Below are positions 873-27,531 of a DNA stretch of 36,768 nucleotides, one piece after another. Position 1 is the first letter of the stretch. The number at the start of each line of letters is the position of its first letter. This stretch comes from a bacterium (GTDB lineage: Bacteria; Patescibacteriota; Minisyncoccia; UBA6257; UBA9933). The stretch covers positions 1 through 36,768 of the forward strand of contig JAJYWO010000016.1 of NCBI GenBank assembly GCA_021791445.1, written 5' to 3'. The notes below the pieces were generated by a model. That model worked only from the letters and a program-made list of their open reading frames with translations, was not told the DNA's origin and did no database searches. The position numbers were made by a program, and so were the translations under genes.

Positions 873-3251
873 TTAGGAGCGTAAGCGACCCAATATCTCT
901 TCCTCCACTTCATAACGATTGCGGCCGTATTTAAGGCGCGAAAGTTCTTTGATTTTTCCCGCCAATTCTTTATTCCCCTTTTCCGGCGGCAAGGTTTTAA
1001 TGTTAAACGGCTTTGTTGTGGCGCCGGCCACAAGAATTTTGGCGTAAGCGTTGAAATTGTCAATATTGATTAAGTCATTCTCGCTGAATATCGGCTCAAA
1101 TTGTTTAATTAAAAATTCCGCGTCTTGCGCTCCGACTCTGAAAGCAACAATGCTTCCCACGTTGCCGAAAACCGCGTCGCGAATTTTTTCCGTCAACTGA
1201 GCGATAAATTGATGAGCAATCGTCAGATTAAGCCGATATTTTCTCGCTTCGGACAAAATTGTGGCAATAGAATCCGTGGTGAAATTCTGAAACTCATCAA
1301 TATAAAGGTTGAAGTCGCGGCGTTTTTTCTCATCCGCGATGTCCACGCGCGACAAGGCTGCCATTAAAATTTTCCCGACAACGATCATGCCGAGTAAATT
1401 GGCGTTCAAATCGCCTATTTTTCCTTTTGACAAATTCACCAGCAAAATTTTTCCTTCATCCATCAGTTGCCGAAAATTAAAAGCGGATTTTGTCTGCCCG
1501 ATAATCGGCCGCACATAATCATTGGCGATAAAATTGTTGAATTTTGAAGTGATGTACGGCGCTATATTCGCCAGCGAGCCCTCGCCTTTCACATTCGCCA
1601 CTTCTTTTTCCCAAAAATCAAGCACAACCGGATTTTTGACGCGCGCCAATTTTTTATTTCTGAATTCCGAATCCGTAAGAACGCGCGCCACTTCAATTAA
1701 AGTCGCGGGTTCTCCGCCGGCTGACGGACTTGAGTCTTCCATCAAGAGTAAAAGCGTATTTCTCATATATTGCTGGAAAACCGGACCCATCGCTTCCCCG
1801 CTTTCGGGAAAAAGCCTGTTAAAAATACTTTGCATCTCGTCAACGATAAAAGTTTTTTGCTCCGGCCGACTGAAATCGTAATCAAGCATATTCATCCCGA
1901 ACGGCCTTTGAATATCGCCCGGGTCAAAAAGCACGACATCATTAATCCTATTTTCCGGAATCCGAGTCAAAATCTCATCAATCAGCGGACCATGCGGGTC
2001 AATCACCGCCACGCCTTTGCCGGCTTTAATGTCTTCGGCAACCATATTGGTCATTAAATTTGACTTACCGGTTCCGGTCTGACCAATTATATAAACATGC
2101 CTCCGGCGGTCGTCTTCGGTAATGTAAACCGGTTTTCTTTGGCTTCTGAAAAAACTTTCTCCGATTAAAGTGCCGGATTTGGGAAGTTCCGCGGGTGGTT
2201 GAGCTTCTTTTGATTTTACCCATTTCAATCTCGGAATGTCGGTGGTGGAAGCCGGAAAATGGAAAATTGACGCCAATTCTTCGGTATTTAAAATCATCGT
2301 CTGACTGTCGTCAAATTCGCGAAAAGCGAATTGATACGCCAGTTTTTTGGAATCGCGCGGTTTAACCAGTTTTAATTCCTGCCGGCGCGGAGCGGAAAAT
2401 TGCGAATAGCCGCCGCTGATGCTTTCCAAAACCATATCCGCCTGATATTGGCTCGGCGCGGAAACCATAATGCGGACGCTTGCTTCCAAAAGCGGCTTGG
2501 AAATTTTCATTTCCAGCGCTTTTACGGCTTCATCGTCAATCACTTTGTTTTCCATTTTCTTTTCTTTGTCTTCCGGAGCCAAAGCGCTTTTAACGTCTTT
2601 CAGTTTGAAACCGACGCCTTTTGAAATATCTTCCAATTTGGCGCCTTTTTTCAAATTATTGATGTTTTGGAAAATACTTTTCTTGGCGGATTTGCCGGCC
2701 GGTCTGACTAAAATTTGAATTCCCGCTCCCTCGCCCACTTCATTTATTTTTGACAACCCGCTCAAAATCGGACTAAAAGTGTCAATATTCGCTTCAACAT
2801 AAGAACGCAGCGGCAAAACATAAGAAGTTTTTTGTTTTAAATAAATTCCTTGGTTCACTCCGGCCGGATTGAATATGTTATACTCTTCCGCCGGTTCAAC
2901 CTGCGCGTCTTTCCACAAACCTTCAATCTGCCTGCTTACAAAATCAATTGATTCATTCGGCACGGCAATATAAAAATGAATTTCCTCGCCAATATGATGC
3001 ACCGCCGCCTCAAAACAAAACGGAGATTTCAATCCGGCCAAAATTCCAAAAAGCTGGGCGGAAAGATTTATTTCGTCTTTGAAATCGCCCTGCTGTTCGC
3101 CGGATTTTTCTTTTTTCGGCAACCGCACCGAAAGCAGTTTCAAGCCAAGCGCGTCTTTCAATCTTTTTTTGCGCAAACTCCTGAAAACAAAAAAGAACGC
3201 GGCGTAAACGGCAACAATGATAAAAATTGAAATTAGATAAATAAAAAACAT
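873..3251 (-). CDS. membrane-anchored TraD/TrwB/VirB4-like (HerA-FtsK superfamily) ATPase
   Basis: N-terminal TM helix; Walker A GQTGTGKS; VIDPHG; Walker B LYIDEFQNF; LSEARKY and AHQFIAQL motifs. Confidence 0.85.
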   Translation of the reverse strand: MFFIYLISIFIIVAVYAAFFFVFRSLRKKRLKDALGLKLLSVRLPKKEKSGEQQGDFKDEINLSAQLFGILAGLKSPFCFEAAVHHIGEEIHFYIAVPNESIDFVSRQIEGLWKDAQVEPAEEYNIFNPAGVNQGIYLKQKTSYVLPLRSYVEANIDTFSPILSGLSKINEVGEGAGIQILVRPAGKSAKKSIFQNINNLKKGAKLEDISKGVGFKLKDVKSALAPEDKEKKMENKVIDDEAVKALEMKISKPLLEASVRIMVSAPSQYQADMVLESISGGYSQFSAPRRQELKLVKPRDSKKLAYQFAFREFDDSQTMILNTEELASIFHFPASTTDIPRLKWVKSKEAQPPAELPKSGTLIGESFFRSQRKPVYITEDDRRRHVYIIGQTGTGKSNLMTNMVAEDIKAGKGVAVIDPHGPLIDEILTRIPENRINDVVLFDPGDIQRPFGMNMLDYDFSRPEQKTFIVDEMQSIFNRLFPESGEAMGPVFQQYMRNTLLLLMEDSSPSAGGEPATLIEVARVLTDSEFRNKKLARVKNPVVLDFWEKEVANVKGEGSLANIAPYITSKFNNFIANDYVRPIIGQTKSAFNFRQLMDEGKILLVNLSKGKIGDLNANLLGMIVVGKILMAALSRVDIADEKKRRDFNLYIDEFQNFTTDSIATILSEARKYRLNLTIAHQFIAQLTEKIRDAVFGNVGSIVAFRVGAQDAEFLIKQFEPIFSENDLINIDNFNAYAKILVAGATTKPFNIKTLPPEKGNKELAGKIKELSRLKYGRNRYEVEEEILGRLRS

Positions 3252-24505: not shown

Positions 24506-24880
24506 TTACTTATTAAAAAAATCCTTTACCCTGTTAACCAAATCATCGATGGATATTTTCGCTTTTATCAGATATTCAACCACACCAAACTCCTGCCCTC
24601 TCTTTATATCTTCTTCCTGCCCAAGATTGGAAATAATTATTACCGGAGTTTTTTTGGCGTGCAGCTGCGGATCCATCCGCATTTCTTCTAAAACTTCAAA
24701 CCCGGTCTTTTTTGGAAGAATAATGTCAAGTAAAATCAAGTCAAAATCCGATTTTCTCAAATTTTCCAAAGCCGCTTCTCCATCAGCCGCCCAAACAACA
24801 TCAAATCCGTTTTTTTGAATTTTAGTTTTTAATAAAGAAGATAAAAACGGGTCGTCTTCAATTAAGAGAATTTTCTTCAT
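24506..24880 (-). CDS. single-domain response regulator (receiver)
   Basis: ILLIEDD, LILLDIILP..GFEVL, IISN, YLIK. Confidence 0.93.
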   Translation of the reverse strand: MKKILLIEDDPFLSSLLKTKIQKNGFDVVWAADGEAALENLRKSDFDLILLDIILPKKTGFEVLEEMRMDPQLHAKKTPVIIISNLGQEEDIKRGQEFGVVEYLIKAKISIDDLVNRVKDFFNK

Positions 24881-24931
24881 ATTATTATAATTATACGAAA
24901 TAAAAAAAACCGCGCAAGAGGGCGGCTTTTT

Positions 24932-24956
24932 ATCAGAACTTTTTTAGTTATCCCAA
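24932..24956 (-). other. 16S trailer arm of the processing stem (pairs with leader 27442-27466)
   Basis: atcagaacttttttagttatcccaa is nearly complementary to ttgggacaactaaaaaaattctgat. Confidence 0.75.
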
Positions 24957-25152
24957 GGCCGAAACTTGAGGCTCCTCGGCTAACGCCTTATTCCGCCAAT
25001 TGGCGGACCGACAACTTTTTTCTAGTTTAATTGTTCCACGCGCAGCTTCCGCTACGCGTGCCTTGTTACGACTTAGTCCATGTCACCGAATTTAGACTAA
25101 CTCCGCCGAAGCGAAGCTTTGCCTACCCCCGGCTCCCTTGACTTGACGGGCG

Positions 25153-26004
25153 ATTGCTTGTTAGAAACTTAACATTGGCGTTCCCACGTAGCGAGCGGAT
25201 TTCCCGCACTACGCGAGCTCTAATGCATTTTTTGTTTTAATTTATACATTTTAATCAATCCTGATTTGGTTAAATGTTCGTTATTTTTTATCCGTTTCAT
25301 TAATCCACAAAATATCTTAAAATCCTTCACTTTTGATTTTAATTTTAATTTGTGTTTTTTGAAAAACGGCATAATTACATTTTCCAAATCTTCTCGTTTC
25401 GTTACTTCATAACGATAACAGTTTTGATGATTAAACCGGTTGTCTTTTTGAAAATAAACATTGCCGCAGCCAAAAAATTTTTTTAATTCATAGAGAATGT
25501 TTTTATCTTTCTCTATAAGTTTAATATAAAATCTTGGTTCCGCTTTTACGCGCCTTTTGATAATTTTATTTTCTTCCGGATTGCGGATAAAAACAGTAAA
25601 ACCGCCTTCTCCGTCAATTAAACCGACAATATAATCTGGATTAATCATTTTAGATTAGAGAGAATCCTTCTCCGCCATCAGGCGGATACTATAATTCAGC
25701 TGACTTCTGACGCTGCGTAAGTTTCATTATACTCCGCCTTAGGCGGAATAACAACGTCAGATCTCCCGAGGTTAGTTAATATTCTGTTCCAAACATCCTA
25801 AACGAGCTTTTTAAATAATCTTCTCCATCCTCACCACCCAATGATGAATCGATTAACTCTTTTTTTGTTTAGGCTGTCTTTTATCTCTTTGCCCTCCGCC
25901 GCCAATCTCGCGATCAACGACTGCAATTTGATTACGTTCCGATGACGAAATCGGAAGAATGGATTTTAACCATTTAGAACAATAACCTGCTCGGCGCGTT
26001 TATT
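25153..26004 (-). mobile_element. 852-nt self-splicing intron in 16S (group II-like) carrying a LAGLIDADG ORF
   Basis: Removal restores TGTACTCAC|CGCCCGTC; domain V-like hairpin at about 25184-25216; ends ...GCAAT; candidate EBS1 GTGAG at 25830-25834. Confidence 0.85.
25220..25648 (-). CDS. single-motif LAGLIDADG homing endonuclease
   Basis: YIVGLIDGEGGF, LKKFFGCGNV, IMPFF.K..L..K.KDF..F. Confidence 0.93.
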   Translation of the reverse strand: MINPDYIVGLIDGEGGFTVFIRNPEENKIIKRRVKAEPRFYIKLIEKDKNILYELKKFFGCGNVYFQKDNRFNHQNCYRYEVTKREDLENVIMPFFKKHKLKLKSKVKDFKIFCGLMKRIKNNEHLTKSGLIKMYKLKQKMH

Positions 26005-26938
26005 GTGAGTACAGGACTCGAGAACGTATTCACCGCGCCATAGCTGATGCGCGATTACTAGCGATTCCAACTTCATGAGGGCGAGTTGCAGCCCTCAATC
26101 CGAACTGAGGCCGATTTTGATGGGATTGGCTCCAGCTTGCGCTTTCGCGACCCATTGTATCGGCCATTGTAGCATGAGTGTTGCCCAGGGTATCAAAGGG
26201 CCATGCGGATTTGACGTCATCCTCGCCTTCCTCCGCGTTAAACACGGCAGTCTCTCGTGACACTTATAACACGAGATAAGGGTTGCGCTCGTTACCCCAC
26301 TGAAGGGAACAATTCAAATCACGAGCTGACGGCAACCATGCAGCACCTGTCCAAATGTCCTTGTGAGACCTCCAACGTTTCCATCGGAGTTCATTTGGAT
26401 TTCTAACCCTGGTAAGGTTCCTCGCGTACCGTCGAATTAAACCTCATGCTCCACCGCTTGTGCGAGTCCCCGTCTATTCCTTTGAGTTTTAAACTTGCGT
26501 TCGTACTTCCCAGGCGGTCTACTTAACGCGTTAGCTTCGCCGCCGAGAGGGTCGATACTCCCAACAGCTAGTAGACATTGTTTAGGGCGTGGACTACAAG
26601 GGTATCTAATCCTTTTTGCTACCCACGCTTTCGCGGCTCAAAGTCAGGAACGTCCCAGCAGAATGCCTTCGCCTTTGGTGTTCCAGCCGATATCAACGGA
26701 TTTCACCCCTACACCGGCTGTTCCATCTGCCTTTAACGCCCTCTAGTTTGGCAGTTTTCAACGCAGCCCCAAGGTTAAGCCCTGAGATTTAACGTCAAAC
26801 TTGCCAAGCCTCCTGCCCGCGCTTTACGCCCAATAAATCCGGATAACGCTTGAGGTCTCTGTATTACCGCTGCTGCTGGCACAGAGTTAGCAACCTCTTA
26901 TTCCCACGGTACAATCACCGTAGTTTTTCCCGTGGAAA

Positions 26939-26977
<39 letters not shown>

Positions 26978-27531
26978 GTCGCTCCATCAGGCTTTCGCCC
27001 ATTGTGGAATATTCTCGACTGCTGCCACCCGTAGGTGTACGAGCCGTGTCTCAGTCTCGTCGTTGGAGGTCAGCCTCTCAGCCCTCCTACCGGTCGTAGC
27101 CTTGGTGAGCCATTACCTCACCAACTAGCTGATCGGACCTAGGCCAATCATAAAGCGTCTTGCGACTTTGCCCTTGCGGGAATATTTGGAATTACCTCAT
27201 CTTTCGACAAGCTATGCCAAACTTTATGGTATGTACCAGGGTGTTACTAACTCGTTCGCCGCTAACACAATTATTGATGTAATCACAAATTGTATTCGCT
27301 CGACTTGCATGCCTTATCCACGCCGCCAGCGTTCATCCTGAGCTAGGATCAAACTCTCAAATAAAAGTAGTTAGTAGTAAGTAATTAGTAGAAAGCAAAA
27401 CGCTAACTACTGGCTACTTACTACATTCTACTCGAATAAAATTGGGACAACTAAAAAAATTCTGATTACTCTCGCTTTTGGAAAAGCGAGTCATTAAATT
27501 ATCAAAGTTCCTTCCATTACAGACAAATACC

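Follow-up and report, generated by a model that had tools for sequence, protein, structure and literature searches.

The 36,768-nt stretch of DNA referred to here as the window (contig JAJYWO010000016.1 of assembly GCA_021791445.1), carries a 16S rRNA gene on its minus strand. This gene is interrupted by an insert of 852 nt, in which the only open reading frame (ORF) of at least 60 amino acids encodes a LAGLIDADG endonuclease; no reverse transcriptase was found. The main features of the locus are the following.

26005..27364, minus strand: 5' exon of the 16S rRNA gene (Rfam RF00177, 1312.9 bits), whose last five bases, CUCAC (26005-26009), form the predicted intron-binding site 1 (IBS1).

25153..26004, minus strand: the whole intron, 852 nt, with an intronless allele in the same-genus genome G001 and a single copy, at 100%, in its own genome (G000).

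25220..25648, minus strand: single-motif LAGLIDADG endonuclease of 142 amino acids (PF00961), within domain IV of the intron.

25024..25152, minus strand: 3' exon of the 16S rRNA gene, helices 44-45 and the 3' tail (RF00177, 80.4 bits over model positions 1391-1533, aligned on its own).

We read the insert as a group II intron without a reverse transcriptase, carrying a single-motif LAGLIDADG endonuclease in its domain IV and lying in the sole 16S gene at C1399/C1400. The probability of this reading is put at about 0.92.

Removal of 25153-26004 joins the 5' exon end GUACUCAC to the 3' exon start CGCCCGUC. In the RNA sense, the order is ...GUACUCAC, 852 nt (26004 down to 25153), then CGCCCGUCAAG.... 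The uninterrupted GUACUCACCGCCCGUC was present in the same-genus genome (G001, locus L141), which is 95% identical to the window across 296 nt upstream of the junction, and in two genomes of the same family (G004 and G005). Because these relatives carry the exact uninterrupted junction, the intron boundaries are fixed to the base and without duplication. An earlier account of this DNA, made from the letters alone (the sequence-only reading), had proposed that excision at these boundaries restores the 16S gene, at a site near C1399/C1400, and both proposals held. In the E. coli comparison, CGCCCGUCA begins at base 1399 of the annotated 1541-nt rrs, which we take to be C1400 in the conventional 1542-nt numbering; the site is accordingly given as 16S 1399|1400, with an estimated uncertainty of one base to either side. 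The genome (480,895 bp in 18 contigs, 98.4% complete) showed a single 16S gene and, on a different contig, a single 23S gene; the insert and the LAGLIDADG gene likewise occurred once each. The sequence-only reading had held that the intron may be essential if this is the only 16S copy. Since no other 16S gene was found in a genome of this completeness, removal of the insert must matter.

Introns at the same site were found by DNA search in seven of 60 close relatives, one of the seven being broken by a contig end. Their identity to the window intron was 69-90% where the whole insert aligned, and two were largely without the ORF region. Short matches (24-48 nt, to the ORF part of the query) in G007, G021, G043, G053 and a second G002 contig were not counted. 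When one genome of each species was scanned for a 15-nt pattern of the junction, at least 120 stretches matched. Among the 120 matches listed, 20 lay in a 16S context, 17 complete and three running off the locus end, all in assemblies of Patescibacteria, or Candidate Phyla Radiation (CPR); the other 100 lay outside a 16S context and presumably matched by chance. The resulting same-site comparison set comprised 24 full introns of 529-994 nt, and the comparison also took in seven more distant relatives. Two loci were left out as incomplete: L153, where a contig begins within the intron and leaves 29 nt of domain V, and L146, which lacks its 5' part for the same kind of reason, the contig being too short. 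When a covariance model of domains V and VI was searched over 150 other genomes of the phylum, matches were obtained in nine. Two side observations were made on the relatives' loci: L090 has a group I intron at 1625-2143 (RF00028, 66.1 bits) in the same 16S gene, besides its group II intron at 1399|1400, and L137 has a match to the AdoCbl-II riboswitch at 3048-3121 (39.2 bits, cut-off 36.5), about 1.7 kb from the 16S gene.

The predicted parts of the ribozyme, from the intron RNA's 5' end to its 3' end, are as follows.

26000..26004, minus strand: 5'-terminal extra bases AAUAA, before the conserved 5' motif (alignment of same-site introns).

25995..25999, minus strand: ACGCG, a degenerate counterpart of the GUGYG motif, directly before stem (i) of domain I, DI(i) (alignment).

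25766..25994, minus strand: domain I, with long-range stems DI(i) and DI(ii) and hairpins Ia, Ib, Ic and Id (RNAalifold and pair counts).

25830..25842, minus strand: 13-nt terminal loop AUUGGGUGGUGAG of an Id3-like hairpin, which covaries with the exon in site-shifted relatives.

25702..25765, minus strand: domain II, its helix 96.6% paired; part of an RF01998 match at 25664-25736.

25698..25701, minus strand: linker AGCU between domains II and III (J2/3); GUCAGCU is invariant among the same-site introns.

25662..25697, minus strand: domain III, its helix 99% paired, with double changes at 4/4 pairs (RF01998 alignment).

25218..25661, minus strand: domain IV, with basal stem CUCUAA (25655-25660) / UUAGAG (25218-25223).

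25183..25217, minus strand: domain V, with a CGC triad (25213-25215), a 2-nt bulge UC (25193-25194), a 4-bp upper helix and the loop GAAAU.

25153..25182, minus strand: linker AAC between domains V and VI (J5/6), domain VI (25156-25179) and the tail AAU.

The structure of domains V and VI was drawn by hand on the alignment downstream of the ORF in the 24 same-site introns. Its 22 pairs were 97.0% paired and 15 of them showed double changes, as compared to 30-46% paired in controls with slid partners. None of 500 shuffles reached the observed percent paired, the numbers of pairs and of cells changed on both sides, or the covariation score, while the fifth measure (further pair types) was reached by 222 of the 500. 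For the window sequence of this part, folded by itself, the same structure has the minimum free energy, and the domain V-like hairpin that the sequence-only reading had drawn after the ORF stop stands as written. The CGC triad lies five pairs below the 2-nt bulge, with its middle G paired to U in 19 of the 24 introns. Domain VI starts with a basal helix of three positions; a conserved AA bulge follows on the 5' strand, and 5 bp with a 6-nt loop complete the hairpin.

In five of the 24 same-site relatives (L008, L014, L084, L038 and L122), 47-110 extra nt were observed within the 3' strand of domain V. These insertions fold as two hairpins between the partners of the CGC triad bases, at two different insertion points, and the conserved closing pairs CUC/GGG are retained beyond them (e.g. 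L038:914-1035, L014:1946-2068). We know of no precedent for two extra hairpins in the domain V 3' strand opposite the catalytic triad.

Domains I to III were folded with RNAalifold on a MAFFT alignment of the same 24 introns, running from the exon to domain III. The fold had 79 pairs, 65 with changes on both sides, and 93.2% of alignment cells were paired; slid partners gave 35-45%, and the observed values were reached by none of 500 shuffles. Two long-range stems close domain I, in which Ic is branched and bears a GNRA loop (GCGA at 25908-25911), and the long Id arm ends in the hairpin with the 13-nt loop. Domain II has a tandem G-A internal loop near its base, and the A of the J2/3 linker may pair, as gamma partner, with the final base of the intron, U. 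The Rfam model RF01998 (group-II-D1D4-1) matched domains II and III in the window at 33.4 bits and passed its cut-off of 35 in five of ten relatives' loci. The basal stem of domain IV was formed with at least five of its six pairs in 18 of the 24 relatives, about 16 of these at the homologous place by our own reading of the output. This stem contains the stop codon of the endonuclease, the last two codons lying just upstream. Covariation thus supports a predicted six-domain group II layout around a central wheel, and the intron would be a compact ribozyme of about 420 nt with class-C-like features. Group II architecture with a LAGLIDADG ORF in domain IV, as the sequence-only reading had it, was borne out by the 24 same-site introns and the seven more distant relatives.

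A LAGLIDADG gene would more usually point to a group I intron, the common host of such ORFs, and one does occur elsewhere in the 16S gene of L090. No Rfam group I model (RF00028 included) matched the insert at E up to 10, however. The last exon base is C where group I would have U, and the last intron base is U where it would have G; the sequence-only reading had likewise noted that group I boundaries are lacking. The fold supported by covariation is the six-domain layout of group II. On these grounds, group I identity was ruled out as a candidate, with next to no probability left to it.

The loop of the Id3-like hairpin would make contact with both exons. At its 3' end, GUGAG (25830-25834) is complementary to the last exon bases, CUCAC, and was proposed by the sequence-only reading as exon-binding site 1 (EBS1). 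The GGYGGUGAG loop was invariant in 24 of 24 same-site introns, and the same-site family cannot test the EBS1-IBS1 pairing because both partners are invariant there. The test came from relatives with shifted insertion sites, which were among the genomes matched by the covariance model of domains V and VI: L152 after 1396 (or 1395), L147 and L151 after 1398, L148 after 1400, and L150 after 1402 (or 1403). In all five, the homologous loop was complementary to at least 5 nt ending at the relative's own 5' splice site. Written as loop/exon end, these were UGUGU/ACACA (L147, L151), GUACA/UGUAC (L152), GGUGA/UCACC (L148) and GCGGU/ACCGC (L150). The proposal is thereby strengthened, as the loop changes with the exon end, and natural covariation supports the predicted EBS1-IBS1 pairing. 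It was also observed that the site-shifted introns each carry an A-rich 5' linker, and that the L148 loop sequence equals that of the window, though the L148 site lies one base further on.

Directly 5' of EBS1, the bases GGGUG (25835-25839) are complementary to CGCCC, the five bases with which the 3' exon begins, one of the pairs being G-U. In eight of the 24 relatives, the complementarity extends over ten consecutive Watson-Crick positions, GGGCGGUGAG. Because both exon ends are complementary to adjoining bases of one loop, that loop would span the ligated junction. A search for a second exon-binding site (EBS2) was negative: for the 17 nt that precede IBS1, 16 of the 24 introns offered no complement of 6 nt, and in the other eight such complements lay at non-homologous places.

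The intron begins AAUAAACGCGCC and ends AAU. The final two bases are AU in the window and in 17 of the 24 relatives, and UU in the other seven, so that the last base was U throughout (24/24). At the GUGYG-like position, which follows the five extra bases AAUAA, most relatives have AAGCG and L147, L150 and L151 have GCGCG; the ACGCG of the window is read from this alignment as a putative GUGYG remnant. The sole candidate for a branch-point adenosine on the 3' strand of domain VI lies six bases from the intron end, and it was in a standard pair in 13 of the 24 introns and unpaired in 11. The 5' start was thus as atypical, and the bulged A of domain VI as far from obvious, as the sequence-only reading had described. 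Within the group II reading, we somewhat favour hydrolysis as the first step, because the 5' splice site precedes the degenerate GUGYG motif by five bases and no bulged A is conserved. A parallel is available in fungal mitochondrial rRNA introns, in which splicing 1-33 nt upstream of GUGYG goes together with loss of the branch-site motif, according to the review of Zimmerly and Semper 2015 (PMC4424553, citing Li et al. 2011).

The same group II intron might instead branch to a lariat or form a circle, using the adenosine six bases from the 3' end or another nucleophile. In its favour, this position falls outside a standard pair in the 11 introns mentioned, with the A facing a C in the inspected sequences, the window included. 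Section 14 of Liu et al. 2026 (PMC13190283) cautions that branching can survive such changes, and describes the fungal LAGLIDADG group II intron rns-952 as splicing with a lariat. The standard pair in the remaining 13 introns, which leaves no conserved unpaired adenosine, argues against it, as do the AA bulge conserved on the opposite strand of domain VI, the five extra bases before the GUGYG-like motif and the motif loss in the fungal introns. We regard branching or circle formation as a serious, if unlikely, alternative to hydrolysis.

The ORF matched Pfam PF00961 (LAGLIDADG_1) with an E-value of 1.2e-15, and aligned to both halves of two-domain enzymes from fungal mitochondria that belong to the I-OnuI group, with I-PanMI as the best match (E 4.1e-31). 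At E up to 1e-10, 828 cluster-level relatives were found; the best 120 of these were 68-100% identical and mostly 142 amino acids long, and those with names came from CPR lineages or unclassified bacterial metagenome-assembled genomes. In the motif GLIDGEG, the glutamate was invariant in 30 of 30 aligned sequences. The C-terminal Met-His was likewise observed to be invariant in 30 of 30 homologues, and constraints on protein and RNA may overlap where the ORF end meets the basal stem of domain IV. A full ORF was present in 19 of the 24 same-site introns, while five kept the ribozyme without it, a pattern that would correspond to the usual life cycle of homing endonuclease genes. In structure prediction, a two-copy dimer model scored 0.77, as compared to 0.00 for the best control, with the interface at residues 2-14; contacts agreed in at least 96% of runs, and the per-residue confidence (predicted local distance difference test, pLDDT) was at least 87. 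Of 30 solved pairs of one chain, 20 attained the mark of this dimer score, as did one of 23 single chains. Similar dimers have already been solved, and the pass may reflect memory in the model, which makes it a sign of likeness and not proof. Motif, alignments and model together identify the product as a single-motif LAGLIDADG homing endonuclease of the homodimeric type, with DNA cleavage as its predicted activity.

Six RNA runs contained 5-7% of the sampled words, and the contigs of three RNA runs and one DNA run were compared with the window. In one RNA run (X16), a metatranscriptome contig joined 25152 to 26005, skipping exactly 25153-26004. The joint is the one that the sequence-only reading had suggested looking for. 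The contig cannot be assigned to the organism, because its shorter side measures 20 nt and there are intronless relatives whose exons are the same. The contig is consequently no evidence either way on splicing in this organism. Two other joints (run X15) had replaced letters and came from other organisms. The DNA run (X1) contained the intron-bearing allele with 0 differences over 24900-26030, and no intronless joint. As a side observation, a 225-nt contig from X16, a sediment metatranscriptome, matched 58 nt of the intron (25180-25237, domain V and the ORF end) without difference and nowhere else, which indicates a related intron in that library, as RNA or as carried-over DNA.

The RNA data bear on a further alternative, namely that the ribozyme no longer ligates its exons, the insert being removed through its own hydrolysis or through RNases of the host, with the ribosome working on a 16S rRNA in two pieces. 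Intervening sequences that leave fragmented rRNA are known in bacteria (Tsurumaki 2024, PMC11270868), and no RNA read assignable to the organism shows ligation. Such a break would, however, fall in the strand of the decoding centre. The loop complementary to both exon ends and the last base U, each invariant in the 24 introns, are features that serve the ligation step, and the one RNA contig with the exact ligated junction, unassignable as it is, also speaks for joining. A permanently split 16S rRNA is therefore considered very improbable.

From these data we infer the following course of events for the group II intron. The pre-16S transcript would fold into domains I-VI, and the terminal loop of the Id3-like hairpin would hold both exons, GUGAG pairing with CUCAC and the adjoining GGGUG with CGCCC. 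Domain V, with its CGC triad and 2-nt bulge, would form the catalytic centre. Hydrolysis at the 5' splice site would most likely be the first step; the exons would then be ligated and the intron set free in linear form. As a homodimer, the endonuclease would cut intronless 16S genes at the site, and repair would copy the intron in. DNA homing of this kind would account for the patchy spread among related bacteria and for the copies with decayed ORFs.

Several results weigh against the group II assignment. Two textbook hallmarks are missing: the intron does not begin with GUGYG at the splice site, and no bulged branch A is conserved in domain VI. The Rfam model for domains V and VI (RF00029) did not match the insert at E up to 10, whether 961 nt, 96 nt or the whole genome was searched; its sole match in the genome was unrelated (17.3 bits, contig 14). 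The Rfam searches suggested by the sequence-only reading therefore bore it out as to group I and, taken literally, contradicted it as to domain V. We consider the RF00029 failure to be outweighed because covariation supports domain V. The upper part of that domain usually has five pairs and a GNRA tetraloop, and the four pairs and 5-nt loop present here depart from this form. The RF01998 score in the window fell 1.6 bits below the cut-off. The structure of domains I to III was derived from the same alignment that was used for counting, which favours it over the slid controls. For a homodimeric enzyme, the target site showed little two-fold symmetry, the best centres reaching only 5-6 of 11 positions. 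Lastly, no RNA could be assigned to the organism.

Further observations concern the surroundings of the insert. The single 23S gene (G000 contig 13, 82725-85718; 2994 nt) is without a large insert, and no 23S gene follows the 16S gene. Downstream of the 16S gene (window 24886-25040), an ORF-like stretch comes next on this strand and has its end near 24880. In the window 16S, the 3' tail (25024-25040, minus strand) reads GGAACAAUUAAACU, as compared to the bacterial consensus GGAUCACCUCCUU, and is without the CCUCC anti-Shine-Dalgarno sequence. CCUCC was absent from 21 of 31 distinct 16S tails among the fetched loci and present in the E. coli control.

The sole 16S rRNA cannot work until the insert leaves the decoding centre. 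Because the only 16S gene is split there, translation would depend on a ribozyme which at the same time is a selfish mobile element. Primer sites in wide use for 16S, around 1390-1400, presumably coincide with the position of the insert. This helps to account for amplicon surveys missing such organisms, as published papers already point out. For the study of group II introns, the family provides many natural examples of compact ribozymes that lack reverse transcriptase and branch adenosine and have 5' extensions, a guide loop that spans the exons and splice sites next to one another, and it should be a good system for studying 5' splice site choice and how hydrolytic splicing is enforced. The shifted sites and the domain V insertions are features of relatives and not of the window intron and, like the junction-spanning loop, need checking against the primary literature.

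Among known systems, class IIC introns (e.g. that of Oceanobacillus iheyensis, which has been crystallised) share with the window intron a small ribozyme and the lack of EBS2, and class IIC has a CGC triad in domain V. Ordinary members differ from the window in having a reverse transcriptase, insertion after terminator hairpins and a GUGYG-type start. Unlike in these, the 3'-exon partner in the window lies directly beside EBS1, which is the class IIA arrangement (delta-delta'). Splicing of class IIC introns in vitro is described as mostly hydrolytic (PMC4748821).

Fungal mitochondrial rRNA group II introns with LAGLIDADG ORFs, 5' insertions and branch-point loss were reported by Toor and Zimmerly 2002 and Li et al. 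2011, as reviewed in PMC4424553. They have in common with the window intron an rRNA host gene, a LAGLIDADG ORF, a 5' splice site upstream of GUGYG and the loss of EBS2 and the branch motif, and the window endonuclease is closest in sequence to the fungal mitochondrial I-OnuI-family enzymes. The fungal introns are IIB1, organellar and mostly equipped with two-motif endonucleases, whereas the window intron is bacterial and has a CGC triad and a much smaller ribozyme.

Closer in kind is the 'rns-1396' IIC-LHE family (IIC with LAGLIDADG homing endonuclease) of Liu et al. 2026 (Genome Biology and Evolution, PMC13190283), first reported by Salman et al. 2012 (PNAS). Liu et al. assign the family to the IIC type; every member has a 5' linker, domain IV holds a single-motif endonuclease, EBS2 is lacking, and the only reported hosts are four genera of Thiotrichaceae, giant sulfur bacteria (PMC13190283). 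The Thiomargarita intron was assigned to IIB1 by Zimmerly and Semper 2015 (PMC4424553) and to IIC by Liu et al. (PMC13190283). The class-C-type backbone, the single-motif endonuclease in domain IV, the 5'-terminal linker, the lack of EBS2 and the location in the 16S 1400 region are common to this family and the window intron, a likeness drawn from the published descriptions. The named site is three bases upstream (1396 versus 1399|1400), and the CPR relative L152 is inserted near it, at 1395/1396. With sites after 1395/6, 1398, 1399, 1400 and 1402/3 all found here, we tentatively suggest, at rather less than even odds, that the 1399|1400 CPR introns and the '1396' introns form one hydrolytically splicing lineage. 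Such a lineage would creep by 1-4 bases per step through retuning of the junction-pairing loop (up to 10 nt), some members tolerating 47-110 extra nt, folded as two hairpins, in domain V. No description of a shifted-site series with matching EBS1 loops, of a junction-spanning loop or of domain V insertions was found in the parts of the literature that were searched, the supplementary tables of Tsurumaki 2024 and Liu 2026 being outside the search.

The nearest known system is that of Tsurumaki et al. 2024 (J Bacteriol, PMC11270868), who reported 53 group II-like insertions in CPR 16S genes, all at position 1400 and named '16IS9'. Of these, 39 carry a LAGLIDADG endonuclease gene, 14 do not and none has a reverse transcriptase; they were classified by Rfam match and called 'reminiscent of group II introns' (PMC11270868). 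Such elements had been called a rare class by the sequence-only reading; they are not rare in these bacteria, and the class was already published for this site (Tsurumaki 2024). No description of domain structure, 5' extra bases, branch site or shifted sites was found in the 16IS9 account, whose Table S3 lay outside the search. The window intron and 16IS9 have the same host group, site and Pfam ORF family, both are without reverse transcriptase, and ORF-less copies occur in the class as among the relatives of the window intron; the fit extends to every tested respect, and nothing essential differs. With its 0.48 Mb genome, relatives named as Patescibacteria and a LAGLIDADG_1 ORF, the window intron is a further member of the published CPR 16IS9 class, and the element itself is of a known kind.

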